From: Candidatus Limnocylindria bacterium
GTDB lineage: Bacteria; Chloroflexota; Limnocylindria; P2-11E
Assembly: GCA_038211425.1 (NCBI GenBank)
Contig: JBBQVQ010000001.1
Coordinates: 39,991 to 103,990 of the forward strand
Direction of reading: 5' to 3'
Length of the DNA stretch: 64,000 nucleotides
Every line of letters starts with the position of its first letter. The stretch's first letter is position 1. The notes under the pieces were generated by a model. The model was not told the DNA's origin. It saw only the letters and a program-made list of their open reading frames with translations, and made no database searches. Position numbers and translations under genes: made by a program. Positions 565 to 59,905 of this stretch are shown here, piece after piece.

Positions 565-756
565 TCGCCACTGCGCGCAGGTCCTGAGGGAGGACTGCGG
601 CTCCCGAACGGACTGGCCTCCGGGCCCTGCTATCATCTTTATCGGTAGGCGGACCACGTCCGCGCGCCGCTCGAGCCGTGAAGGTGGGCGCAACCCACCT
701 TTTTTGTCGCCCGGAGATCGGGCGCGCGCAATTGAAGAGGAAGAGGGGAGCGCTGC

Positions 757-1971
757 ATGAATCGCGAGCTTGTCGCCGGACTCGCGCAGCTCTCCGCAGA
801 GAAGGGGCTCCCCAAAGAGGTCGTCGGAGACATCATCGCGCGCGCCCTCAAGCGCGCCTACGGCCCCGAGGAGAACATCGACGTCAAAGTCGACATCCAG
901 ACCGGCGCCTTTCGTGTCTACCTGCTGAAGAGCGTCGTCGACAAGGTGGAGGACCCCAAACTCCAGATCCAGCTCGAGTCCGCGCGCCGCATCAAACCCG
1001 ATGCGCAGCTCGGCGACGTGATCCCCCTCGAAGAGTCGGCATCCGCCCTCGGCCGGATCGGCGCCCAGACCGCCAAGCAGGTCATCCAGCAGTCGCTGCG
1101 CGAGGCGGAGCGCGAGCAGGTCTACGCCGAGTACGCCGATCGCGAGGGCGACATCATCAACGGGCAGATCGACCACTTCGAGGCCGGCTCGGCCATCATC
1201 GAGCTCGGCAAGGCCAAGGCGATCCTCCCTCGGAGCGAGCAGGCGTCGCATGAACGCTACTTCGTCGGCCAGCATCGCAAGCTGCTGGTCCTCGAGGTGC
1301 GGCGCACGATCCACGGGCCGCAGATCATCGTGAGCCGGGCGCACCGCGGCCTCGTGAAGCGCCTCTTCGAGCTCGAGGTCCCTGAGATCTACCACGGTCA
1401 GGTCGAGATCGTCGGGATCGCGCGCGAGGCGGGGTCTCGCAGCAAGATCGCCGTGCGCGCGCGGCAGCCGGGCCTGGATCCCGTGGGCGCATGCGTGGGG
1501 CAGCGCGGCCTGCGTGTGCAGGCGATCGTGAACGAGCTCGGGGGCGAGAAGATCGACATCATCCCGTTCGACGACAAGCCGGAGGCGTTCGTGAAGAACG
1601 CCCTCTCGCCGGCCCCGGTCGTGAGGGTGGACATCGTCGCCGACGACAAGACCGCATACGTCATCGTGCCGGACCGTTTCCTATCGCTCGCGATCGGCAA
1701 GGAAGGGCAGAATGCCCGGCTCGCCGCCAAGCTCACGGGTTGGCGCATCGACATCCGGAGCGAGTCGGAGGTGCGGGCGGAGGTCGAGCCCGAACCTGAG
1801 CCCGAGCCCGAGATCATCCCCGAGCCGGTCGTCATCGAGGACGAGACCGAGGTCCGTCACGACCTGGTGGCGGAGGTCGAGGCCGAGTCGGCCGCGGCCG
1901 ACGAGGATGAGCTCGAGGAGGAGGATCGCGCCCTCCTCGGCGGCAAGAAGAAGAAGGCCGAGCGCCGTTAG
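757..1971 (+). CDS. nusA: transcription termination/antitermination factor NusA
   Basis: 404 aa with the typical N-terminus [19 protein letters not shown]1/KH-like core and acidic E/P-rich C-terminal tail. ATG preceded by gaggaagagggga RBS. Lies upstream of infB. Confidence 0.93.
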
Positions 1972-2284
1972 CGCCCCGACCGGCGGCGCTCGCCGGGAGC
2001 CGCCGCAGCGCACGTGCGTCGCATGCCGCACCACGCGACCCAAGCGCGAGCTCGTGCGCGTGGTCCGCTCGCCACAGGGCGCGCTCTCCATCGACCTTCG
2101 TGGAAAGGTCTCGGGGCGCGGCGCGTACGTTTGCGCCGACGATGCGTGCGTGGAGCGTGGGCTCGGGCACGGAGCGCTGGCAAAGGCGCTCGAGGCCCCG
2201 ATCGACAGCGAGCGAGCGCGGGCCCTGGGCCAGGAGCTGGCGGCGGCGGTGCACGAGCGCCAGCGGGCGAACCGAGGAGGATAG
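1907..2284 (+). CDS. ylxR: YlxR/DUF448 family RNA-binding protein (nusA-infB operon protein)
   Basis: C-terminal part RTCVACRTTRPKRELVRVV...GRGAYVC matches the YlxR family, in the classic position between nusA and infB. The only canonical in-frame start after the open frame begins is ATG 1907, which would overlap the nusA 3' end by 65 nt; no ATG/GTG/TTG exists between the nusA stop and the conserved core. Start uncertain. Confidence 0.6.
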   Translation: MSSRRRIAPSSAARRRRPSAVSAPTGGARREPPQRTCVACRTTRPKRELVRVVRSPQGALSIDLRGKVSGRGAYVCADDACVERGLGHGALAKALEAPIDSERARALGQELAAAVHERQRANRGG

Positions 2285-2287
2285 GCG

Positions 2288-4189
2288 ATGCCGAAGGCGA
2301 GACCGAGGCGTTTCCCGCCGCAGCGCGGCCCGCGACCCCGTCGGCGACCGTCGCGAGGGCAGCCGGCGGCCGTGGTCGTCGCGCCCGCTCCTGCCGTCGC
2401 GGTCATCCCCGAGGACCAGGGCTCCATCATCCTCCCAAAGACCATCCCCGTCGGCGAGCTCGCGAAAACGTTGGATATCAGCGTGGTCGACGTGATCCGC
2501 GCGCTCGTGAACATGGGGGTGATGGCGACGATCAACCAGACCGTCGACTTCGAGACCGCCTCGCTCGTCGCGAGCGAGCTCGGTTTCGAGGTCGTGCCCG
2601 AGGAGGACGTCGTCCCGGAGCTGGAGGCTCTGCCGACGGAGCCGGTGTCGACCAAGCAGGTGCTATGGACCGACGAAGACACCTCGAAGCTCCGTACCAG
2701 ACCGCCGGTGGTGACCATCCTCGGTCACGTCGACCACGGCAAGACCAGCCTCCTCGACGCGATCCGGGAGACGAACGTCACCGCCCGCGAGGCTGGCGGG
2801 ATCACGCAACACATCGGCGCGTACCAGATCGAGCACAAGGGACGGAAGGTCACCTTCCTCGACACGCCGGGGCACGAAGCGTTCACGGCGATGCGCGCTC
2901 GTGGGGCGCAGGTAACCGATGTTGCGATCCTCGTCGTCGCCGCCGACGACGGCGTCCAGCCTCAGACGGTGGAGGCGATATCGCACGTACGCGCGGCCGG
3001 CGTGCCGATCGTCGTCGCGCTCAACAAGATCGACAAGAGCGACGCGAACCCCGACCAGGTGAAGGGCCAGCTCGCCGAGCAGAGCGTGACGATCGAGGAG
3101 TACGGCGGAGAAGTGCCGCTGGTGGCGGTGTCGGCCAGGACCAAGCAGGGCATCGAAGAGCTCGTCGAGGTCGTCCTCCTGGTGGCTGACGTCGCCGATC
3201 TCAAGGCCGACCCGGACCGCTCCGCGATCGGCCGCGTCATCGAAGCGCACCTGGACAAGGGCCGCGGACCAGTTGCGACGGTCCTCGTGCAGACAGGCAC
3301 GCTCGACCGCGGCGATCTCATCGTCGCGGGGACGACCTTCGGAAAGGTCCGCGCGATGACCGACCACAACGGCAAGAGCATCGGCCGGGCAGAGCCCTCG
3401 CGACCCGTGCAGATCCTCGGCCTTCCCGAGGTGCCCGAGGCCGGCGACGTGCTTCGCGCGGTGGCCGACGAGAAGACGGCCCGTGCTCAGGCGGCGCAGA
3501 ACGCGCGCGATCGCGCGGCGGCGACAGGCAGCGAGCGCCCGGCGACGCTCGACGAGATGTTCGCCCAGGTCAAGGAGGGGAAGGCCAAGGAGCTCAAGAT
3601 CGTGCTGAAGACCGACGTACAAGGCTCGCTCGAGGCGATCAAGGGGGCGCTGGCGAAGGTCCCCCAGGACGAGGTGGCGCTGAACGTGATCCACGACGCG
3701 GTGGGCGACATCACCGAGTCGGACGTCACGCTCGCGGCCGCGTCGGGGGCGGTCGTGATCGGCTTCAACAACCGCGTCGACGTCCCCGCCAAGCGCGCGG
3801 CCGAGCAGGGCACCGTCGACATCCGGCAGTACAAGGTCATCTACGAGCTGCTCGAGGACGTGGAGAAGGCGCTCACCGGGATGCTCGAGCCAGAGATGGT
3901 GGAGAGCACCCTGGGCCACGCGGAGGTGCGCGCGATCTTCACCGCGGGGAAGACCACGATCGCGGGCTGCATGGTCGTCGATGGCCTGATGCGCCGTGGA
4001 GTTCAGGCGCGGCTCATCCGAGGCGGCGCACCGGTGCACGAGGGGCGGATCGACACTCTTCGGCGCGTGAAGGACGACGCGCGCGAGGTCAACGCCGGGC
4101 TCGAGTGCGGGATCGTCCTCGAGGGACACAACGACGTGCTCGTGGGCGACGTGATCGAGTGCTACGTGATCCAGCCCAAGCCCAGGTAA
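2288..4189 (+). CDS. infB: translation initiation factor IF-2
   Basis: 633 aa, R/P-rich N-terminus, G-domain [27 protein letters not shown] with ggaggatagg RBS. Follows nusA/ylxR. Confidence 0.95.
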
Positions 4190-42751: not shown

Positions 42752-43723
42752 CTATGGGGCGGTCGAGAGACGTCCGCGCTCGAGCCGCTCGGCGTCGTCG
42801 AAGTGGCGCCGGAGCTCGGCCGAGGTGATCTTCGTGTAGCGCCGCGTCGTCTGGGGGCTCGCGTGTCCCGCGAGCTCCTGCGCGGCGAGAAGGCCAGCGT
42901 GGCGCGCGACGATCGTCAAACGGCCGTGACGGAACCAGTGCGGCGAAAAGTCGTCGGGTAGGCCCGCGCGGCGAGCCAATGCGGTCACGAGTGCCTGGAC
43001 CGAACGAGGAGCGACCGGGTACACGTCCTTCACCGGAATGCGCTCGCGCGTGGTCGGATCGACTACGCGCCGCACGGTCCGTCGCGAGACGAAGAGGTGC
43101 GGCGACTCGTCGCGCCGCGTGTTCAAATACCTCGTCAGCCATTCCGCGGCGTCGGCAGTGAGGTACGTGCCGCGCACCTTCTTGCCCTTGCCGAGCACCT
43201 CGACCTCGCGCGTTCGGAGGTCCACGCGGCGACGGGTGAGCGCGCAAAGCTCCGAGAGCCGGCAGCCCGTCGCAAAGAGCACCTCCAGCAGGGCACGATC
43301 CCGCAACTTGGTCTGGGACTTGGATGGCAGCGCCGCGATGAGGCGGTCGAAGTCGGCGCGCTCCATGTGGCGTGTCTGGCGGTCGCCGATCTTCGCGAGG
43401 ACGACGGTGTCCGGGGCCGGCAGCGCCTGATCGCAACGCGTGACGCCGTGACGGATCAGCCCACGCAGGGCCGACGCATACAGATTGCGCGTGGCGAGCG
43501 TCAGCGGCCCGTCGGGGGTCCGACGCTCGGCCAGGTCCATCTGGTACGCCACGATGAGCGGCCGGTCGATGTGCGCCGCGGGAGCCGCGAGCGCGACGCC
43601 GCGGCCTTCCGCGAAATCCAAGAAGTCGCGGACGTAGGCATGGTAATGCGATACGGTCCGCTCGGCCCTTCCGGCGAGCGTGAGATGGGCGAAGTAGTCG
43701 TCGACCAGCTCAGCGAGCGTCAT
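42752..43723 (-). CDS. tyrosine-type site-specific recombinase/integrase (XerC/D-like)
   Basis: N-terminal core-binding domain and catalytic R...H.LR.....Y residues (HWFRHGRLT, RRYTKI). Start taken at MTLAELVDDYFAHL (aa 66 of track ORF 42752..43918). Confidence 0.85.
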   Translation of the reverse strand: MTLAELVDDYFAHLTLAGRAERTVSHYHAYVRDFLDFAEGRGVALAAPAAHIDRPLIVAYQMDLAERRTPDGPLTLATRNLYASALRGLIRHGVTRCDQALPAPDTVVLAKIGDRQTRHMERADFDRLIAALPSKSQTKLRDRALLEVLFATGCRLSELCALTRRRVDLRTREVEVLGKGKKVRGTYLTADAAEWLTRYLNTRRDESPHLFVSRRTVRRVVDPTTRERIPVKDVYPVAPRSVQALVTALARRAGLPDDFSPHWFRHGRLTIVARHAGLLAAQELAGHASPQTTRRYTKITSAELRRHFDDAERLERGRLSTAP

Positions 43724-43966
43724 CGAGGCTATGGGCCGTACCCGCACACATGGCGAAGCGTATGTCATTCGAGTGCTCGCCCGGCTGCGCTCGCCGACGC
43801 GGTCACGCGCCAATTGGTCGAATGGGTGGGGGAGCGCAACTCCTGCGGCTCCTTTTCGTCGTGCGGATGTCTTCGTGAGAACCCACCCGCGTCGAGATCT
43901 CGTAGGCGCTCGGGCCAACGACCGTCATCGAGCCGTCCGACCAGTGGCCAGACTTAGACTTCGCCG

Positions 43967-49412: not shown

Positions 49413-50678
49413 CTAGAAGGCGGCGTTGAGCTCGGCGGCGAGCGACGGCGGAACGTCCGCCTCGATCTCGATCCCCCGCTCGTTGTAGTCGGCGCGGTGC
49501 AGAGCCCCTCGTTCGCGGATGCGCTGGACCATCGCGCCCGATGCGTGAGGGAGCGTGAGCGCGACGCGCTGCCACAACGAGGCCGCGAGCAGAGCGATGC
49601 GTGCGCGGAGCTCCTCGAGTCCCGCACCGCGCAGGGCGGACACGAAGATGGCCTCCGGGAACTCGGCGCCGAGCGCCTCATGGAGCGCCTCGCCCTCGGG
49701 TCCCGAGAGCGCGTCAGCCTTGTTGAGCACGAGCAGGGTCGAACGCTCCTGGAGCCCCAGCGAGCGGAGGGTGTCCCGGACGACGGCGCTCTGCTCGTGC
49801 ACGTTCGGGTGCGACACATCGGCCACGTGGATCAGCAGATCGGCTCCGTCGAGCTCCTCGAGCGTCGCGTGGAACGCCGCGACGAGCGTCGGCGGCAGCT
49901 TGTTCACGAAGCCGACCGTATCCGAAAGCAGCGCCAGCGTGCCGTTCGGCAGCGCGATCCTGCGCGTCGTCGGATCGAGCGTAGCGAACGGCTGATCGGC
50001 GACGAGCACCTCGGAGCCGGACAGCGCGTTCAGTAGCGTGGACTTTCCGGCATTCGTGTACCCGACCAGCGCTGCGAGGAACAGCCCTTCCGCGGCGCGC
50101 GAGCGTCTGCTGCGGGCCCGCTGGGCCGAAAGCTCGTCGAGCCGTCCCTTCAGCTCCTGGATCCGGCGGCGGATCACCTGCCTGTCGCTCTCGAGCTTGG
50201 ACTCGCCTGGCCCGCGCGTTCCGATACCACCGCCGAGGCGCGAAAGGCCGAGCGATCCTCCGGTCAAGCGGGGCAGGCGGTATTCGAGCTGCGCGAGCTC
50301 CACCTGGAGGCGGCCCTCCCTGGTCCGCGCGTGCCGCGCGAATATGTCGAGGATCAGCGCGGAGCGGTCGATCACTGCGAGCTTTGTCGCCTTCTCGAGC
50401 GATCGCTGCTGCGTCGGCGACAGCTCGTCGTCGCAGACCAGGAGATCCGCGGCCACGCGGCCGCACTCGAGGGCGACCTCCTCGAGCTTCCCCTTCCCCA
50501 CCCAGCTGTTCGGATCGGGCGCACGGCGGCGTTGCTCGCTGCGCCCGACGACTCGTGCGTCGGCGGCAACCGCCAGCGCCGCCAGCTCGTCGAGCGAGTC
50601 CTCGACGTCGAGGGTGGCGCCCGGGGTCTGCAGCCCGAGCAGGAACGCGCGCTCCGGCGGATCCGCCGTGTCGATCAT
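49413..50678 (-). CDS. hflX: GTPase HflX
   Basis: HflX N-domain, G1 GYTNAGKSTLLNAL, DTVGF and NKAD motifs. ATG at 50678 has a gagggag RBS; the track extension is judged spurious. Confidence 0.9.
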   Translation of the reverse strand: MIDTADPPERAFLLGLQTPGATLDVEDSLDELAALAVAADARVVGRSEQRRRAPDPNSWVGKGKLEEVALECGRVAADLLVCDDELSPTQQRSLEKATKLAVIDRSALILDIFARHARTREGRLQVELAQLEYRLPRLTGGSLGLSRLGGGIGTRGPGESKLESDRQVIRRRIQELKGRLDELSAQRARSRRSRAAEGLFLAALVGYTNAGKSTLLNALSGSEVLVADQPFATLDPTTRRIALPNGTLALLSDTVGFVNKLPPTLVAAFHATLEELDGADLLIHVADVSHPNVHEQSAVVRDTLRSLGLQERSTLLVLNKADALSGPEGEALHEALGAEFPEAIFVSALRGAGLEELRARIALLAASLWQRVALTLPHASGAMVQRIRERGALHRADYNERGIEIEADVPPSLAAELNAAF

Positions 50679-50821
50679 CGTCGCTGCTCCCTCTGAAAAA
50701 ACGCGGCATGCATGCGCCTGCGCGCTTGCGCGGGCAGCAGCATCGTGGATGAGGAGTGTGCCACCCCGAGCGAAAAGGGACCGCGTCCCCGGCGACGCAA
50801 CGGCGTCGGTAGCATGCGGGC

Positions 50822-51400
50822 GTGACCCCACCACCCTCCCGCGCATTGGCGCGCGCCTGGTTCGACATCGGCACGCAGTCGGTCGGCGGAGGCACGAGCA
50901 CCCTGTTCATGATCCGGCGGATCCTCGTCGAGCGGCATGGATGGATCTCGCTTCGAGATTTCACCGAGGCATGGGTCCTATCGCAGCTGAGCCCGGGGAT
51001 CCACCTCGTGGCCCTCGCGGGTCTCCTTGGCCGGCGCATCGCCGGGCTTCGCGGGGTCGTGGTCTCGGTCGGCGGCATGATGCTCCCCGCGGCGGCCATC
51101 ACGGCGATCCTCACCGCGCTCTTCAGCGGCATCGCGGAGCATCCGCTGACGCTCGCGGCCCTTCTCGGCATCGGTCCGGTCGCCGCCGGTATGACCATCG
51201 GGCTCGCGCTCACGCTCGCGCGTCCGGTTGTGCACCGCGGTTGGTACGCGATCCTCGACGTCGCGCTCCTTGCGGCGGCCTTCGGCGTGCTGCTCAGGGG
51301 TGCCGCCCCGACCGTCGCCGTGATCGCGGGGAGCGCGGTCTTTGGCGCGTTCTTCCTCCGGCGCGAGCGTCCCACATCATCCGATGCCCCCATGAGCTGA
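50822..51400 (+). CDS. chrA: chromate transporter family protein (short-chain CHR, first half)
   Basis: 192 aa, four to five TM helices, CHR motif SQLSPGIH..G. Confidence 0.8.
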   Translation: MTPPPSRALARAWFDIGTQSVGGGTSTLFMIRRILVERHGWISLRDFTEAWVLSQLSPGIHLVALAGLLGRRIAGLRGVVVSVGGMMLPAAAITAILTALFSGIAEHPLTLAALLGIGPVAAGMTIGLALTLARPVVHRGWYAILDVALLAAAFGVLLRGAAPTVAVIAGSAVFGAFFLRRERPTSSDAPMS

Positions 51401-51403
51401 GGC

Positions 51404-51910
51404 ATGGATCAACTCACGCTGTTCCTCCTGTTCCTGAAGTCCTCCGCCCTGGCCGTCGGCGGCCTCGCATCGCTGCCGCTCCTGCGGACCGACCTGGTGC
51501 CGGCGTACACGAACGACGCAGGGATCCTGCAGGCGCTCGCCATCGGTCGGCTCGCTCCCGGCCCGAACGGCCTGTACATCGTGAGCCTCGGTTATCTCGT
51601 CGCCGGCTGGACGGGTGCCGTTTACGCCGTGGTCGGCGCGACCCTCGCGCCGCTCGCGATCCTGCCCGCGACCATGCTCGCCCGCCGCTGGCTGCTGTCG
51701 CCCTGGTTCGCCGGACTCGTCCGCGGTGTCGCGCTCGGGACCGCGGGGCTCCTCCTCGCGACGGGCGTCACGATCGCGCAGACGGGCGGAACGGCGCCGT
51801 GGCAGCTCGGGCTCGCCGCTGCCGCCGTCGTTCTCACCGTCCGCGGCAGGCTGCACCCCGCCATCCTCGTCGGCCTCGGTGCCGCGGCGGGGCTCGCACT
51901 CGGCAGATAG
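51404..51910 (+). CDS. chrA: chromate transporter family protein (short-chain CHR, second half)
   Basis: 168 aa, motif RLAPGPNGLY, adjacent to the first half 4 nt downstream. Confidence 0.8.
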   Translation: MDQLTLFLLFLKSSALAVGGLASLPLLRTDLVPAYTNDAGILQALAIGRLAPGPNGLYIVSLGYLVAGWTGAVYAVVGATLAPLAILPATMLARRWLLSPWFAGLVRGVALGTAGLLLATGVTIAQTGGTAPWQLGLAAAAVVLTVRGRLHPAILVGLGAAAGLALGR

Positions 51911-52762: not shown

Positions 52763-53197
52763 ATGCGGCCCCTGCTGGTCCTGGTCGGCGTGATGCTGGC
52801 GCTCGGCATGTCTTCGGCGAGCGCCCAGGCGGCGGACAAGGCGTGCGGGACCGTGTCCGCGGTCTTCTTCGGCGATCTCCCGAGCGGCGGGTTCGTGGCC
52901 ATCGACGGCCGCAGGTTCCAGGTCGGCGGCGTCAGTCCGCGCAACGTGGTGCTGCCACCCGCGACGCACCTGCGTGTCGGAGTGCGCGCTTGTGCCGTCG
53001 GGGACTTCCGTGCACTCGCGGACGGGACGGTGGACCTGTACAACGGCGAGGTGTTCGTCGAGGCGACGGCGGGGCCGCTCCCGAACACCAGCACAACGAC
53101 CGCAGACGTGGGCGGTGCGTTCGCCTTCGGCGTACTGGCCGCGGCCGGCCTCGCCGGCGCCGCGAAAGCGTTCGGCTCGAGCCGACAGCACAGCTGA
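52763..53197 (+). CDS. secreted/anchored hypothetical protein with C-terminal sorting-signal-like tripartite tail
   Basis: Signal peptide MRPLLVLVGVMLALGMSSASAQA and a small beta-rich domain. C-terminus PLPNTSTTTADVGG-AFAFGVLAAAGLAGAA-KAFGSSRQHS has a motif, hydrophobic helix and basic tail. Confidence 0.55.
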   Translation: MRPLLVLVGVMLALGMSSASAQAADKACGTVSAVFFGDLPSGGFVAIDGRRFQVGGVSPRNVVLPPATHLRVGVRACAVGDFRALADGTVDLYNGEVFVEATAGPLPNTSTTTADVGGAFAFGVLAAAGLAGAAKAFGSSRQHS

Positions 53198-53209
53198 GAG
53201 GAGCAGGTT

Positions 53210-54424
53210 TTGCCCGAACCACCGACGTTGATGACGCGCCTCCGCGCGAGGGTCGCCGGCGAGATCTCGACCGACACGATCGCCGCCTACCGGGCCGCCG
53301 GGGCCTCCGCCTACGGCCTCCTGGTCGAGGCCGAGCAGGAGCGGACGGTGCTCGCCACGGACGACTACTGGACCGTGTCCGCGTCTCAGCAGACGTTCTT
53401 CCTCGCCACATGGAATGCCTTCGTCCTGCAGAGCATCGCCGACGCCTTCATCGACGCGGACTTCGCCTTCGATCCCGGAACAGTGGGATTCGTGCCGCCG
53501 GTGACCGCCGAGCAGGCGATGCGCTTCTACGCCGGAGTCGAGCAGTGGCTGGTGCGTGCGCGTCAGGCGCAGGCCGACCCCCGCTACCGGCTCGATCTTC
53601 ACGTGCCCGCGGAGCTTCCGGCGTGGGTCGAGGTCGAGCCCTGCCCGGAGGCGCACCTGCACGCGATGCTGACGGCCTCGGGCAAGCTGCGCGAGCACGC
53701 CGAGCTCGCTGTCGCGGACCTGAGAAAGCGCGCGCCGCAGAGCCGCCAGTCCGATCTCACGAAGATCAAGTCGCTCCTGGCCGCCGCGCAGACAACGGCC
53801 GACTACGCCGAGCAGCTGCACACGCAGCTCCACGCCGGCCAGAGCGCAAGTCAGGACCTGCACGAGCGCATCGAGCGGTCGATCAAGGACGCCCTTGGGA
53901 AGGCCTTCCTCACCGGGCAACTCGCAGCGATGCCGCAGATCGACCAGTACGTTCCAGAGAGCGGGAGCGTCCCGACACAACGACTACCCGGTCCCGGTGA
54001 TCGCGGCTTCGATCCCTGGTGCCTGACCGATCCGCACACGCGAGCGCAGTGGCAGCGCGACCGACGAGCTCAGGCGGCGGTCGACGCGTTGTGGAAGTAC
54101 GACCCACATCCCGACCGTACGCTGGAGATCCAAGCCACGATCGACGCCGCTCTCGCGCGGGGCGATGTCGATTACGCCACCGACGCGAACGGCCGCCGCC
54201 TCGGTAATTACTTCTGCTGTCCCTGGTCGGCCGTCTACGTCGCCAAGCGGCCGATCGAGATCGGTGGCAAGCGCCTGCGGCCGCTGCAGCAGTTCACCTT
54301 CGACGTCTCGGCCGAGGAGATCGTCGAGGGCGGGGCCTTCAAGCGGGAGCTGCTCGTCGCGGACTTCTCCCGGACCGAAGACATCGACTATTGCGACCCG
54401 GGCGCGGACGGCCGTCACGAGTAG
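53210..54424 (+). CDS. hypothetical protein (404 aa, no recognised domain)
   Basis: TTG start with gagaggag RBS 6 nt upstream. Alpha-helical N-terminal half and Cys/Trp-containing C-terminal half (DPWCLTDP, GNYFCCPWSAVYV). Confidence 0.5.
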   Translation: MPEPPTLMTRLRARVAGEISTDTIAAYRAAGASAYGLLVEAEQERTVLATDDYWTVSASQQTFFLATWNAFVLQSIADAFIDADFAFDPGTVGFVPPVTAEQAMRFYAGVEQWLVRARQAQADPRYRLDLHVPAELPAWVEVEPCPEAHLHAMLTASGKLREHAELAVADLRKRAPQSRQSDLTKIKSLLAAAQTTADYAEQLHTQLHAGQSASQDLHERIERSIKDALGKAFLTGQLAAMPQIDQYVPESGSVPTQRLPGPGDRGFDPWCLTDPHTRAQWQRDRRAQAAVDALWKYDPHPDRTLEIQATIDAALARGDVDYATDANGRRLGNYFCCPWSAVYVAKRPIEIGGKRLRPLQQFTFDVSAEEIVEGGAFKRELLVADFSRTEDIDYCDPGADGRHE

Positions 54425-54475: not shown

Positions 54476-55234
54476 CTAGCTCGAAAGCTCGCCCTCGAAG
54501 ACGTATTCCGCCGGGCCGCTGAGAGTCCAGCGCTTTCCCGGGAGGACGACGAGGGCCCCGCCGGGCAGGTGCACGGAGATCCTGTCGCCGCGGGCATCGC
54601 CGCGCCCGAGGGCCGCGGCGGCGGCGGCGATCGCCCCGGTCCCGCACGCGAGCGTCACCCCCACTCCACGCTCGTCGACGCGGAGGCGGATAGCGCCGGC
54701 CGATCGCACCGCGGCGCAGCCCACGTTCCCCTCGCCCCCGGCAGCCCGCGCGGCGGCGGCGAAGGCGGTGAGGTCGATCGCCGCCGGCTCCGCGACGAAC
54801 GCGACCAGCTGGGTGTTGCCCGCGTCCACGCGCGTCGCCCCGTGCGGAGCGCCTCCATAGACGAACGTGAACCGGCCCACGACGCGCGGGGGCGCAAGCT
54901 CGATGGCGATCCCCGCGCCGTCCCGGCGGGCGCCGACGACCGCGCCGCGGGTACGCAGCCGCAGCCTCTCTCCTCCGTGGCGATCGAGCAGATACCGTGC
55001 GACGCATCGGGCGCCGTTGCCGCACGCCTCGGCGGTCGATCCATCGGCGTTGTGGATCCTCCAGTCCTACACGCGGTCGTCGCGATCTCCGATCACGAGG
55101 ACGCCATCGGCGCCGATCCCCAGCCTTCGATCGCAGAGAGCGGCCACGTGGGCGGCCGTCAGCGTCGCCCAACCGTCGTCGCCCTCGCCGACGATGAAGT
55201 CGTTGCCGCAGCCGTGCATCTTCGTGAACCTCAC
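54476..55234 (-). pseudogene. dapF: diaminopimelate epimerase with in-frame amber (TAG) codon at codon 56
   Basis: N-terminal 55 codons VRFTKMHGCGNDFIV...GDRDDRV, then TAG at 55069..55067, then DWRIHNADGSTAEACGNGARC. These continue in the same frame into track ORF 54476..54880 (C-terminal half with GTGAIAAAAAA and LPGG). The GTG start at 55234 overlaps the miaA stop (GTGA). The stop replaces a conserved aromatic position (E. coli DFHYRIFNADGS). Confidence 0.8.
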
Positions 55235-56127
55235 TTCGCGAGTGCCTCACGGATCATCTCGAGCGGATCGACGGTCGTTGGGTCGACCCACCGCACTTCC
55301 TGATCGCGACGGAACCACGTCATCTGGCGCCGCGCGTACGCGGAGGTGTCTTTCGCGGTGGCGGCGATCGCATCGCCAAGGTCGATCTCGCCTCGCAGAT
55401 GAGCAGCCCAGTGGATGTAGCCGTGGGCGCTCATGCTCGGGAGGCGCGGGTCGAGGCCGTCGGCCAGCAGCGTCGCGGTCTCCTCGAGCACGCCCCGCTC
55501 GACCATGCCTCGAACGCGGCTCTCGATCTCCCTACGGAGGAGGGGGCGAGGCGGACAGAGCCCGATTCGGATGGTCTCGAGGCATCCTCGGCGCGCTTGA
55601 TGACCGCTCGCGCTTCCCGTGAGCATCGCGATCTCGAGGTAACGCACGACGCGACGCACGTTGTGGGGATGGACACGTGCGGCCGCGGCGGGGTCACGCG
55701 AAGCCAGCTCCTGGTGGAGCGCGACGTCGCCGTGCTCTGTCGCTCGCGCCTCGAGCGCGGCGCGGAGGGGCGCATGAGTGGGCAGCGCGTCGAGCGCCAA
55801 CCCGTCGAGGAGGGCGCGCACGTACAGGCCCGTTCCCCCCGCGACGATCGGGACGCGGCCTCGGCGCTCGATCTCCGCGAGAGCCGCACGCGCTTCCCGC
55901 TGGTAGCGAGCCGCGTCGTAGCGTTCGCCGGGATCGGCGACGTCGATCAGGTGATGAGGGACGGCCCGCCGCTGCCCGGCCGTCGGTTTGGCGGTACCGA
56001 TGTCCATCCGGCGGTAGACCAGGCGCGAGTCCGCCGAGAGGATCTCCCCCTGGAGAAGCGTCGCGGCGCCGAGCGCGAGCGTCGTCTTGCCCGAGGCTGT
56101 CGGCCCCACGATCGCAAGGACCCTCAT
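55231..56127 (-). CDS. miaA: tRNA dimethylallyltransferase
   Basis: P-loop VGPTASGKT, motif DIGTAKP, 298 aa. Lies upstream of dapF. Confidence 0.92.
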   Translation of the reverse strand: MRVLAIVGPTASGKTTLALGAATLLQGEILSADSRLVYRRMDIGTAKPTAGQRRAVPHHLIDVADPGERYDAARYQREARAALAEIERRGRVPIVAGGTGLYVRALLDGLALDALPTHAPLRAALEARATEHGDVALHQELASRDPAAAARVHPHNVRRVVRYLEIAMLTGSASGHQARRGCLETIRIGLCPPRPLLRREIESRVRGMVERGVLEETATLLADGLDPRLPSMSAHGYIHWAAHLRGEIDLGDAIAATAKDTSAYARRQMTWFRRDQEVRWVDPTTVDPLEMIREALAK

Positions 56128-56230: not shown

Positions 56231-57583
56231 TCACCTCCGCTCCGTCAGCGCCCGCAGCGCCATGCGCGCGGCTTCGATGCGACCCGCATCGGGCACCCGC
56301 TCCGCATAGCGCAGCTGCTCGAACGCCGTGACGACCGGCCCTGCGCCAAGCCACTCCGGCGAGGACGCGGAGATGCGAAAGAGGTGCTCCGTCGGCGTCT
56401 CCGCATCCGCGCGCCACCCCGCGCCACGGCCTTCCGCGAGAGCGAGAAATCTCCAGTACAAGAGTCGCACCGAAGTCGAGACGCTGCCGTCGTTCGACGG
56501 TGGGCGCCGACGCGGGTGGCGGCGCGGGAGCAGCGTCGCGAGGCTCGCGCGCAGCGAGAGGCCATCGGCTCGCTCCCGTTCGATGCTGCCGCCTTCCGGA
56601 AGATCGGCGCGCCGGTCGCGCACGAGCCGGTCGATCAGCAGCACGGCGATGCCGACCCCGACGACGGCGATGAGGATCTCGACGGCACCGAACACGAACG
56701 GCCGGCTGTGCTCGAGCGCCAGCCTCACCGCCTCCTCGTCTGCGTCAGGCCGCGCCGGAGGCGGTCGCCGGGGAGGGATGTCGACCGACCCGAACCATCC
56801 GGAGAAGACCTCGACCAGGTAGGCGGCGAGATAACCGAACGGAAGCAGCATCGCGTACAGGGCACGCGAGAGCACCGGCTCGACCGCCCTCCCGAGCTCG
56901 GCGAGCGCCTCTTGCGCTGTCGGGAGGAACGCCGCGACGACGATCGCCGCAGCACCCAGAGTGAACGCCGCCGCGGTGCCGGAGACCGCGGCGGTGCCTC
57001 CCCGCGCCTCGTCGGGTGCGAGCTGCTGATCCTCGGCGGACCGAGCGAGCGAGAGCGTGAGCCCTCCGGTCGCGACGACGAGCAGTCCCAGCATCGCGAG
57101 CGACCCCCGGTCGACCGGCAGCGGGATGATCGCGAGAAGCACCAGCGACACCAGCGCGAGCGCGCACGCGTCGCGCGCGTCGCCCCACCGCCCCAGCGTG
57201 CGCGCGAGCGAGAGCACGCGCCAGAGGAACGCTTCCCCGAAAAATGCGAACGCGATGCCGCGCGTGAGCACCGCGAGCCCGTCCGCTCCGCGCATCGGGA
57301 GCATGAGTCCCCAGACCACGGCCGCTCCTACGACCACCGCCACCTGGACGGTGCTCTGCCCCTCGGCGCGCGAGTCTGCGAGGAGCGCGGACAGCACCAG
57401 GATGACCCCGAAGAGCCCCACGGTGACCGGCAGGATCGCAAGGGGTGCGGCTCCGAGAATGAGCGAGTGGATCAGCCCGGCGACTGCGGCGAAGGCCACG
57501 GCCTCCATGAACGCGCGCCCTGCGAGCAGGGTGAGCCTCGGCGCTCTAGACGGCACGGCCCGCCTCGGATCCCGCGAGGACAT
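56231..57583 (-). CDS. membrane protein, DUF4129/transglutaminase-like (third gene of MoxR–DUF58 triad)
   Basis: Multiple TM helices then a soluble C-terminal domain. The track start overlaps the DUF58 3' end by 38 nt, so a later start is possible. Confidence 0.55.
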   Translation of the reverse strand: MSSRDPRRAVPSRAPRLTLLAGRAFMEAVAFAAVAGLIHSLILGAAPLAILPVTVGLFGVILVLSALLADSRAEGQSTVQVAVVVGAAVVWGLMLPMRGADGLAVLTRGIAFAFFGEAFLWRVLSLARTLGRWGDARDACALALVSLVLLAIIPLPVDRGSLAMLGLLVVATGGLTLSLARSAEDQQLAPDEARGGTAAVSGTAAAFTLGAAAIVVAAFLPTAQEALAELGRAVEPVLSRALYAMLLPFGYLAAYLVEVFSGWFGSVDIPPRRPPPARPDADEEAVRLALEHSRPFVFGAVEILIAVVGVGIAVLLIDRLVRDRRADLPEGGSIERERADGLSLRASLATLLPRRHPRRRPPSNDGSVSTSVRLLYWRFLALAEGRGAGWRADAETPTEHLFRISASSPEWLGAGPVVTAFEQLRYAERVPDAGRIEAARMALRALTERR

Positions 57584-58778
57584 CGATCGCGACTCCGCTC
57601 GACCGTACCTGCCGCACGATATCTTCCGGCGGCTCCTGGACGGTTACCACCATCACGCGGTGGTGCGCGCGACGCAGCGCCACGCACGCCTGCGCGAGCG
57701 AAGTCCCGAGCCGGGGTGTCACCACGATGAGGCTGGCCCCCCATGGGATGCGTCCGCGCTCCCTGAGGAACACCGCCTCGGGGGCGGCGGCCGCGTATGG
57801 TCCGAGCCGGGCCAGGATGTCGAGGCTGCGCACCAGCGGCCGCGGGCCGCGGCCAAGTGCCGATCGCGGCCGCTCGTGCGTGATGTTGTCGAGGCCGTTC
57901 GTGATGAGACCGACCTGCCGGCCCGCTTCCGCAGCGAGGCGAAGCAGCTCCGCCGCCGCCGACACCACGAGCTCGGTCGCGTCGGGGTCGGCCTGGATCC
58001 AGTACTGGTCATACGAGGCGACATTGACAAGGAAGATCGCGTCGAGGCTCGTCGCCGGCTCGTAGAGCTTGGTCTGAAGACGACGAAGACGCGCGGACGC
58101 CTTCCAGTGGATCTCCTTGCGCGCGTCGCCGATGCGATGCTCGCGGACGCCGCGGAAACGCAGCGGATCCGGCAACAGCCCGCGCCTCGTCGCCGTCTCG
58201 GCGAGCGGCCGCAGCGACGGGAGATGGCGATCGCGGACCGCGAGTGGCGCCGGATATGCGATGAGCGTGAGGCCGGGCGACAGGGTGCGGTCATCACGGA
58301 TGAAGCCGAGCCAGTCGCTCGCGCGAAGCCTCAATGGACCGAGAACGAAGGCGCCGCGCTGGGACGCTCTCAGCAGAAAACGTAGCTTCACGCGCTCGAA
58401 GGGCCGGGGCCCGAATCCCGCGCCGATGCTGGATCGAGCGCGACCCCGCTGATCGGTCGCAGGCTCGATCCCCTCGGGGAGGTTCAAACGGATCTCGAGC
58501 CACGGCAGCGGCAGAGCCTTGCGGTTCGCGACGGCGAACGTGACCGTGAACGTTTCCCCCGATACGACCCGAGCCGGGAGAAGCTCGGCACGGACCTCGA
58601 CCGCGAGCAGCGCGAGGCGGGCGGTGATCTCGACCACGGCGCCCGCGACCGCCACGCCTGTGGCCAGCACGATCAAACCGCCCTCGCGGCTGATGGCCGC
58701 GATGAGCGCGAGAAGGACCGCGGCAGCCCACGGGAACTGCCCCGTCCGGGTGCCCAGGTGCGCCGGGGCCGCGACCAA
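57546..58778 (-). CDS. DUF58 domain protein (vWA-like, MoxR-associated)
   Basis: 410 aa, N-terminal TM helices, conserved DUF58 core (EIHWKASAR.). Confidence 0.7.
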   Translation of the reverse strand: MVAAPAHLGTRTGQFPWAAAVLLALIAAISREGGLIVLATGVAVAGAVVEITARLALLAVEVRAELLPARVVSGETFTVTFAVANRKALPLPWLEIRLNLPEGIEPATDQRGRARSSIGAGFGPRPFERVKLRFLLRASQRGAFVLGPLRLRASDWLGFIRDDRTLSPGLTLIAYPAPLAVRDRHLPSLRPLAETATRRGLLPDPLRFRGVREHRIGDARKEIHWKASARLRRLQTKLYEPATSLDAIFLVNVASYDQYWIQADPDATELVVSAAAELLRLAAEAGRQVGLITNGLDNITHERPRSALGRGPRPLVRSLDILARLGPYAAAAPEAVFLRERGRIPWGASLIVVTPRLGTSLAQACVALRRAHHRVMVVTVQEPPEDIVRQVRSSGVAIDVLAGSEAGRAV

Positions 58779-58784
58779 TCCCGC

Positions 58785-59747
58785 TCAGCCCGTCCGGGAG
58801 ACCACGGGCTCCTCCGCCGGCACTGGCGTACGGCCCATCACTTCGGCGACGACGGTCATCGTCGTACGCCCCCGCATCTGCGCCTCAGCATCGAGGAAGA
58901 GGCGGTGGCGGAGCACCGGGGGTGCCTGCGCCTTGACGTCGTCGGGCAGGACGAAATCGCGGCCGCGGATCGCCGCGCGCGCCTGAGAGGCGCGATACAA
59001 CGCGAGGGCGGCACGCGGGCTTGCCCCGAGCTCCACGCCGGACAGTCGGCGCGTGGCTCGGACGATGGCACTGATATAGCCACGCACCGCATCGCTGACG
59101 CGTACTGCCCGCACTTCGGCGCGCAGGGCGGCGAGCCCCGTCCCATCGAAGATCGGCTCGAGCGTGTCCGTCGAGACATTCGCCGGTCCGTGAAGGCGCA
59201 GGATCTCGTCCTCCTCCCCTTCGTCCGGATAGCCCAGGTTCAGAAGGAGCAGGAAGCGGTCGAGCTGCGCTTCGGGCAACGGGAACGTGCCCTCGAGCTC
59301 GATCGGGTTCTGGGTCGCGATGACGAAGAATGGGTCCGGCAGCCGGTGGGTCGTCTCGTCGACGGTGATCTGCCGCTCTTGCATCGCCTCCAGCAGGGCG
59401 GACTGCGCGCGAGGCGTCGCGCGGTTGATCTCGTCGACGAGCACCACGTTCGCCAGGAGCGGACCGGGGCGGTACTCGAAGCGCCGCGTCGCCTCATCGA
59501 ATATCGAGACTCCGGTGATGTCCGACGGAACGAGGTCCGGCGTGCACTGGATCCGCCTGAAGTCGAGGTCGAAGGTGCGCGCGACCGCCCGCGCGAGCAT
59601 CGTCTTTCCCACCCCGGGGACGTCGTCGAGGAGCACATGGCCGTCCACCAGGAGCGCGGTGAGCATCTGCTCCGTGGCCGCGCCCTTGCCGACGACGACG
59701 CGCCCCACCGCTGCGACGATGCGCGCCGCAGCATCCTGGACGATCAC
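58785..59747 (-). CDS. MoxR-family AAA+ ATPase
   Basis: Walker A GVPGVGKT, Walker B VVLVDEINRATP, sensor TQNPIE. GTG at 59747 gives the canonical roughly 320-aa length; the track ATG at 59897 adds 50 aa. Confidence 0.85.
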   Translation of the reverse strand: MIVQDAAARIVAAVGRVVVGKGAATEQMLTALLVDGHVLLDDVPGVGKTMLARAVARTFDLDFRRIQCTPDLVPSDITGVSIFDEATRRFEYRPGPLLANVVLVDEINRATPRAQSALLEAMQERQITVDETTHRLPDPFFVIATQNPIELEGTFPLPEAQLDRFLLLLNLGYPDEGEEDEILRLHGPANVSTDTLEPIFDGTGLAALRAEVRAVRVSDAVRGYISAIVRATRRLSGVELGASPRAALALYRASQARAAIRGRDFVLPDDVKAQAPPVLRHRLFLDAEAQMRGRTTMTVVAEVMGRTPVPAEEPVVSRTG

Positions 59748-59905
59748 GAAGGGCGTCCATGCGGCAGAGCGCAGGGAAACACGCCACCGATCCGCTGAGT
59801 CGACCCGCGCGTCAGCCACACCATGACAGTGATCGGATGCTAGCGGGGGTGCCCCGCACCCCATCGTGAGCGTGCTGTCCATCCGCGTCGGTACCATGGG
59901 GATCC

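Follow-up and report, generated by a model that had tools for sequence, protein, structure and literature searches.

This analysis concerns two adjacent genes, ORF A and ORF B (ORF, open reading frame), in a 64,000-nucleotide (nt) stretch of genomic DNA from a Candidatus Limnocylindria bacterium; the whole of this stretch is called the window below, and all positions refer to it. ORF A encodes an exported protein of 144 amino acids (aa), and ORF B encodes a protein of 404 aa that is predicted to be cytoplasmic. On the evidence given below the two are judged, with reasonable though far from complete confidence, to be functionally independent genes that lie side by side in this lineage only, ORF A specifying a probable surface-anchored protein and ORF B a probable Cys/His protein of metal or stress physiology. 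An earlier description of the region made from the DNA letters alone, here termed the initial annotation, had treated the two genes as a unit.

Gene calls

The pair and its translation signal were mapped as follows.

52763..53197, plus strand: ORF A, 144 aa, ATG start; exported protein
53196..53203, plus strand: Shine-Dalgarno-like gagaggag, overlapping the TGA of ORF A and ending 6 nt before the TTG of ORF B
53210..54424, plus strand: ORF B, 404 aa, TTG start; cytoplasmic member of a large unnamed family

Both genes are real. The guanine-plus-cytosine (GC) contents at first, second and third codon positions are of the coding type for ORF A (0.72/0.56/0.88) and for ORF B (0.71/0.48/0.87), as they are in hflX, miaA and the other known neighbours, and the TTG start of ORF B is backed by the N-termini of its homologs. 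The two plus-strand reading frames that had been called initially, with the 12-nt gap between them and the gagaggag ribosome-binding site upstream of the second, thus agree with both the coordinates and the codon-position composition. The genes are probably co-transcribed, judging by the gap of 12 nt.

Conservation of the pair

Outside this organism the adjacency of ORF A and ORF B was found only in an identical metagenome contig of 931 nt, a conspecific sequence that was also the sole result of an exact look-up of ORF A. None of 89 loci carrying an ORF B homolog contained a homolog of ORF A by tblastn (best E=0.78), and the nearest relatives of ORF B, at 78% (L093), 77% (L088), 76% (L087) and 67% (L089) identity, have unrelated upstream genes. 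An ORF B homolog was likewise absent from both readable loci of ORF A homologs (L091 and L092). In the first of these, the gene after the best ORF A homolog (P0125, at 52% identity) is no ORF B but encodes a beta-propeller-like protein with a membrane anchor; in the second, the only metagenome locus obtained from a seven-sequence ORF A alignment, the homolog lies between a pyridoxal phosphate enzyme and an unrelated 610-aa protein. The families also differ in size, that of ORF B having hundreds of members and that of ORF A about 25.

These observations bear directly on the proposal of the initial annotation that the two genes form a surface-display or processing module. In such a module the 404-aa protein would mature, modify or export the sorting-signal protein. 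The 12-nt gap, the ribosome-binding site that overlaps the upstream stop codon and the uncharacterised state of both genes speak for this reading, but the adjacency is missing from all 89 and both of the loci described above, the family sizes are unequal, and ORF B lacks both a signal peptide and any membrane segment by which it could reach an exported substrate. A dedicated module is for these reasons considered very improbable. If the two genes are instead independent, the pairing is a local accident, their shared transcript is most likely the product of local history, and the two-gene system as such has no importance. Weighing against full independence, the close spacing and the overlapping ribosome-binding site point to a shared transcript, and a functional link specific to this lineage is possible.

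The ORF B family

The 404-aa protein had been described as an orphan, a status that does not hold, since at least 565 homologs were found in the protein database across several phyla. The best 120 of these at least 565 homologs are 378-429 aa in length and match over the full length at 46-78% identity; all 120 lack a precomputed Pfam domain, and those that bear a name are entered as 'hypothetical protein'. A scan of genomes, one per species, returned 137 loci encoding a homolog, with two copies in several genomes, and the closest match in this genome collection came from a Solirubrobacterales metagenome-assembled genome (MAG; 61% identity). Homologs are present in Actinomycetota (Solirubrobacterales, Conexibacter, Amycolatopsis, Nonomuraea, Catenulispora, Rugosimonospora and others) and Cyanobacteria (Microcoleus, Chroococcidiopsis and Leptolyngbya), and also in Armatimonadota, Abditibacteria, Chloroflexota, Deinococcales, Thermaceae, Gemmatimonadota (Longimicrobium) and Acetobacteraceae. 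The family spans seven or more phylum-level groups, mainly within the Terrabacteria.

The earlier statement that ORF B has no recognisable domain was borne out by the absence of a Pfam match at E<=0.1 and by NCBIfam matches that amounted to noise (E>0.1). Comparison of ORF B with PDB sequence profiles gave no relative, and a literature search with the motifs CCPW, WCLTDP and EVEPCP returned only unrelated papers. Neither a signal peptide nor a membrane segment was found in ORF B, in keeping with the cytoplasmic appearance noted initially.

Conservation was measured by re-alignment of the 120 sequences. Four residues are kept in all of them (C145, H149, H218 and E222), and four further cysteines in most of them (C337 in 99%, C336 in 98%, C395 in 95% and C271 in 84%); E18, Q74, D84, D268, D298 and the tryptophans W68, W113, W295 and W339 are kept in at least 95%. 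The segments DPWCLTDP and NYFCCPW, which had been singled out as conserved in appearance, are present in ORF B and are among the most conserved positions of the family. In many members the C-terminus is a His-rich GGHHDD tail.

An AlphaFold2 model of ORF B built from 40 sequences reached a mean predicted local distance difference test score (pLDDT) of 90.9 and a predicted template modelling score (pTM) of 0.78. The conserved segments are distributed over the two modelled domains as follows.

53228..53950, plus strand: N-terminal all-helical domain (residues 7-247)
53636..53656, plus strand: EPCPxxH (residues 143-149), in the helical domain
53861..53875, plus strand: HERIE (residues 218-222), in the helical domain
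53975..54421, plus strand: C-terminal alpha/beta domain (residues 256-404)
54008..54034, plus strand: FDPWCLTDP, in the C-terminal domain
54215..54226, plus strand: CCPW, in the C-terminal domain
54386..54400, plus strand: DYCDP, in the C-terminal domain

According to this model ORF B is a cytoplasmic two-domain protein, predicted to consist of a helical bundle and an alpha/beta domain for which the PDB holds no match; in the model itself the alpha/beta fold covers residues 278-383. Foldseek comparison of the model with the PDB gave nothing below E=0.18, and the fold of the C-terminal domain may have no counterpart there.

The N-terminal region of about 240 residues resembles ferritin-like and other up-down helical bundles in being made of long antiparallel helices, and the weak Foldseek matches include ferritins and bacterioferritins. 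A ferritin-like di-iron bundle was considered for ORF B and rejected: the best Foldseek E was 0.18, the probabilities of the ferritin matches were at most 0.44, and the candidate ligands C145, H149, H218 and E222 form no ExxH pairs.

The family, undescribed but widespread, is less a surprise than a reasonable lead of the domain-of-unknown-function kind. ORF B flags a large family of proteins of about 400 aa that is highly conserved in several phyla and has neither a curated model nor a solved relative, with a predicted fold that is confident but unmatched. Cultured organisms that carry a member include Amycolatopsis orientalis, Nonomuraea spp., Conexibacter, Abditibacterium utsteinense and Chroococcidiopsis.

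Gene neighbourhoods of ORF B homologs

Neighbouring genes were identified in 84 non-redundant ORF B loci by heuristic gene calling, clustering and Pfam annotation, with seed matches counted within 3.5 kb. The number of loci with each class of neighbour was as follows.

P1B-type ATPase: 16/84
CDF transporter: 9/84
ArsR regulator: 8/84
PspA: 7/84
PspAA: 7/84
Multicopper oxidase: 6/84
RND pump: 4/84
Usp: 3/84
Any metal-type neighbour: 35/84 (42%)
Metal-type or Psp/Usp neighbour: 43/84

PspA, PspAA or Usp genes occurred near ORF B homologs in 11 of the loci, and rhodanese and hemerythrin genes were also found among the neighbours. The metal-type neighbours often lie on the same strand as the ORF B homolog, many with gaps of less than 130 nt. 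In two Armatimonadota loci (L017 and L061) genes for an RND pump, the ORF B homolog, a P-II protein and a P-type ATPase follow one another in operon-like order; in three Nonomuraea loci (L039, L052 and L056) ArsR and CDF genes precede the ORF B homolog in a similar manner; and in four loci of Abditibacteria (L016, L048, L053 and L054) the ORF B homolog is followed by an HMA-ATPase gene with gaps of 20-130 nt. Same-strand placement beside metal transporters and regulators is thus recurrent across lineages for the ORF B family. Given that a genome holds few such transporters among its thousands of genes, adjacency by chance would be expected, as a rough estimate, in well under 1% of cases. Since the transporter classes differ from phylum to phylum, the association points to metal stress in general and not to one metal.

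Among the closer relatives of ORF B, L087 has genes for Usp, PspA, PspAA, PspAB and an M48 peptidase nearby (692..3923 of that locus), and a membrane spermine-synthase-like gene stands alongside the homolog in both L088 (2118..3659) and L093 (1937..2722).

Some further features of these loci were recorded. Same-strand metal-efflux clusters that include an ORF B homolog are also present in L036 and L022 (Armatimonadota/Abditibacteria) and in L063 and L069 (Nonomuraea). A small P-II-like gene lies between the ORF B homolog and the ATPase gene in four loci, and three cyanobacterial homologs (L013, L024 and L032) are flanked by one or two Usp genes.

Proposed role of ORF B

Because its homologs recur in and beside metal-efflux operons and beside PspA and Usp genes, ORF B most likely acts in tolerance of metal or envelope stress. 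Its invariant Cys, His and Glu residues would form a putative metal centre, or else a thiol-based or redox centre, and by means of such a centre the protein could bind, buffer or hand over metal ions. Taken further, ORF B and its relatives may make up a novel type of cytoplasmic Cys/His metalloprotein, with a C-terminal fold as yet absent from the PDB, that works with efflux pumps (P1B-ATPase, CDF and RND) throughout the Terrabacteria as a metal buffer, sensor or delivery factor, a proposal that is put forward tentatively and that we would sooner doubt than accept.

Known accessory proteins of metal efflux, such as the CopZ-type HMA metallochaperones and those of ArsR-regulated CDF/P1B-ATPase operons, offer the nearest comparison. 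Like these, ORF B homologs have invariant Cys and His residues, and they belong to ArsR-CDF, RND-PII-ATPase and HMA-ATPase clusters in which they share the strand of the other genes. Unlike the CopZ-type proteins, ORF B has about 400 aa and two domains, with no HMA or other Pfam domain and no fold match in the PDB.

Metal binding is putative, being suggested by residue conservation together with gene context, and two observations weigh against a role in metal handling. About half of the ORF B loci have no metal- or stress-type neighbour, and such placement away from metal genes also distinguishes the family from the accessory proteins of metal operons. In the window itself the only neighbours of ORF B that are even loosely related are two chromate-transporter half genes at a distance of 1.3 kb.

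A different role would be that of an enzyme whose conserved Cys and His residues take part in catalysis or carry an Fe-S or redox centre, with thiol, sulfur or oxidative-damage chemistry as examples; ORF B would then be a general stress protein, with the link to metal pumps secondary. Many invariant polar residues are spread over both domains, the neighbours include Usp, PspA, rhodanese and hemerythrin genes, and the family occurs in the desiccation- and radiation-tolerant Chroococcidiopsis, Deinococcales and Abditibacteria, all of which would suit such a protein; yet ORF B resembles no enzyme family or fold, and metal efflux is the most frequent single class of neighbour (35/84 loci). An enzymatic function of this kind is accordingly regarded as unlikely. 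With its family adjoining genes of metal efflux and envelope stress, ORF B offers a concrete starting point, open to testing, for work on metal homeostasis in acidophilic bacteria and in those of soil and desert.

ORF A and its family

Four elements of ORF A flank or follow the mature domain.

52763..52831, plus strand: Sec-type signal peptide MRPLLVLVGVMLALGMSSASAQA, read from the sequence, with predicted cleavage after AQA
53078..53092, plus strand: LPNTS motif (residues 106-110), an LPXTG-like pentapeptide with Ser at P1'
53111..53164, plus strand: hydrophobic segment GGAFAFGVLAAAGLAGAA (18 residues, 117-134), best 15-residue Kyte-Doolittle window 1.93
53165..53194, plus strand: basic end KAFGSSRQHS; a tail containing Arg or Lys follows the hydrophobic segment in all anchored homologs

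As read from the sequence, the signal peptide has a charged n-region, a hydrophobic core and an AxA site and is followed by AD. The homologs share a hydrophobic N-terminus and a small-x-small site before A-[DE]-[RK]-x-C-G, so that the export by an N-terminal signal peptide claimed initially for ORF A is a layout common to its relatives. The mature part comprises a beta-rich domain of roughly 82 residues with two invariant cysteines (C28 and C77), and the residues that are invariant in the family alignment are C28, G29, G43, I47, C77 and G80.

Homologs of ORF A were obtained by an exhaustive HMMER search of 1.84 billion representatives, which gave 23 at E<=1e-3 and 10 at E<=1e-10; these are 41-53% identical and mostly 120-170 aa long, and ORF A itself bears the identifier P0121 in the protein collection. 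When ORF A was used in a word-indexed search no match was returned, and its apparent orphan status is therefore an artefact of search sensitivity, as the exhaustive search found its family. A profile built from the ORF A alignment brought in just eight more matches, all on short contigs. No Pfam or NCBIfam domain was matched by the whole protein or by the tail alone, even at E<=10, and comparison with PDB sequence profiles gave a single weak and meaningless match (PsbTn, E=0.024).

The strings quoted initially for the tail, namely PLPNTST, the 18-residue hydrophobic stretch and KAFGSSRQHS, were all located. The tail as a whole is kept in 16 of 27 relatives as [LMV]PxT[STA], most often LP[NS]TST, followed by a spacer, a hydrophobic stretch and an end containing Arg or Lys, and the 15-residue Kyte-Doolittle means of the relatives at the same position are about 2.0-3.2. 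Two further relatives end directly after the motif and look truncated, three (P0144, P0148 and P0149) have a membrane segment and basic tail with no clear LPxT, and four longer lipoprotein-like relatives carry the domain at the C-terminus and have no anchor. In a six-frame translation of 838 kb (the window plus 93 loci) the pattern L[PA]xT[GSTA] followed by a hydrophobic segment and a basic C-terminus was found only in ORF A and its homologs, so that it is no product of chance. The tripartite tail with a non-canonical motif described initially is thus present in orthologs of ORF A and, being conserved among relatives, is a genuine sorting-like signal.

Two observations were made on the domain composition of relatives. 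In P0137, P0138, P0140 and P0142 the Cys-Cys domain of the ORF A type is C-terminal and is the last of two similar tandem domains, and the long N-terminal region of P0138 (556 aa) resembles the gene that follows the ORF A homolog in L091.

Retention of ORF A at the cell surface

ORF A is probably a small secreted protein that is retained at the surface. In the sequence of events proposed, cleavage of the Sec signal peptide would release the beta-rich domain of about 82 residues, which is probably held by one disulfide, and the C-terminal LPxT[S/T/A]-hydrophobic-basic signal would keep this domain at the cell surface. The likeliest means is that a sortase-type transpeptidase cuts after the Thr and joins ORF A to the wall; if no sortase acts, the tail would remain as a C-terminal membrane anchor. 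Processing by a sortase is plausible from the features of the tail, and anchoring in this way is given a little less than an even chance.

The tail represents a variant form of an established class of sorting signal. In common with LPXTG sortase substrates, ORF A combines a signal peptide with an L-P-x-T pentapeptide that is separated by about eight residues from a hydrophobic stretch of some 18 residues, after which comes a basic end. It differs from them at P1', where the family motif LP[NSTA]T[STA] has Ser, Thr or Ala and never Gly, in a further conserved Thr (LPxTST), and in that the window protein matches neither PF00746, the LPXTG anchor model, nor an NCBIfam anchor model. One of 17 family members does match PF00746 weakly (E=0.005). 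The PEP, PGF and GG signatures of PEP-CTERM, PGF-CTERM and GlyGly-CTERM are absent from the ORF A tail, which has no NCBIfam match. The original assignment to a sortase- or exosortase-type signal therefore stands as regards the sortase-like layout and fails as regards the exosortase motifs.

Other sorting motifs with which the tail was compared are LPXTS and LPXTN of Streptococcus agalactiae, LPNTA of class D in Bacillus anthracis, and LAXTG of actinobacterial class E. LPXTS-tailed proteins are among the predicted sortase substrates of S. agalactiae, and LPNTA is a class D motif (PMC8225981); SrtA of Streptococcus pyogenes binds and cleaves LPATS (PMC9520033). As LPXTS is a documented minor variant in streptococci, a sortase-like mechanism is possible for LPNTS.

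The features that weigh against sortase anchoring are the same that would favour a plain C-terminally membrane-anchored exoprotein, in which LPxTST would be a Pro/Thr/Ser linker, possibly O-glycosylated, and not a cleavage site. They are the invariable lack of Gly at P1', the failure of the window protein to match a sorting-signal hidden Markov model, and the absence from the 64-kb window of a candidate for the cognate sortase that the initial annotation had envisaged, no sortase-like TLxTC motif having been found there in a coding frame; the three relatives mentioned above that have a membrane segment and basic tail with no clear LPxT also fit a plain anchor. A linker of this type would not explain why Leu-Pro-x-Thr is strictly kept, always the same distance ahead of the hydrophobic segment, in an otherwise variable linker, and the acceptance of LPXTS and LPNTA by known sortases and the weak PF00746 match in one homolog likewise count against it. 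A plain membrane anchor is on the whole thought possible but somewhat doubtful. Under sortase anchoring, the ORF A family may stand for a distinct LPxT[S/T]T signal, recognised in uncultured soil Actinomycetota by a sortase whose P1' specificity is unusual, and its LPxT[S/T/A] tail could help to define sortase specificity in poorly studied members of that phylum.

Genomic surroundings of the pair

The genes around the pair were assigned by Pfam as follows.

49413..50846, minus strand: hflX
50822..51400 and 51404..51910, plus strand: chromate-transporter half genes (192 and 168 aa), both PF02417
52012..52647, minus strand: RibD_C protein
54476..55234, minus strand: dapF
55231..56127, minus strand: miaA

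The initial annotation had taken the pair for a two-gene insertion between hflX and dapF. Its neighbours hflX, dapF and miaA were confirmed, but the interval between hflX and dapF holds five genes, namely the two chromate-transporter halves, the RibD_C gene, ORF A and ORF B. GC content is flat across the region (0.68-0.73), and the direct and inverted repeats found around the pair are only short matches at chance level, so the locus bears no mark of recent insertion. No meaningful promoter-like or terminator-like sites were found around the pair.

These data also bear on the further suggestion that the pair is a toxin/immunity-like island, or a defence island, inserted between hflX and dapF. 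The order miaA-dapF-hflX, which is contiguous in many Actinobacteria (for example Rv2725c-Rv2727c of Mycobacterium tuberculosis), is interrupted here, and the pair has a tyrosine recombinase gene some 9 kb upstream of it; both would be in line with an insertion. Neither the even base composition nor the chance-level repeats are those of an inserted island, however, the pair has no PADLOC or PHROG family match, and ORF B homologs are single chromosomal genes in widely differing contexts. An island of this type is thought scarcely credible.

Several minor features of the surrounding DNA were noted. The first chromate-transporter half gene overlaps the start of the divergent hflX by 25 nt. The tyrosine recombinase gene (Phage_integrase family) is at 42752..43918 on the minus strand, and the stretch between it and hflX contains small unannotated ORFs and genes for a BBE/FAD oxidase, a rhodanese and an MFS transporter.

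In dapF an in-frame TAG follows codon 55 (55067..55069, minus strand; ...DRDDRV*DWRIHNADGS...), and both halves of the gene around it still match diaminopimelate epimerase in Pfam and the PDB. The TAG could be a nonsense mutation that makes the gene a pseudogene, or an assembly or sequencing error of the MAG; read-through is less likely.

Directly downstream of miaA, on the minus strand, is an operon (56231..59897) that encodes a MoxR AAA ATPase (58785..59897), a DUF58 protein (57546..58778) and a DUF4129 protein (56231..57583). Another DUF58 gene is found some 7 kb away from the ORF B homolog of Amycolatopsis (L001), which is probably a coincidence.

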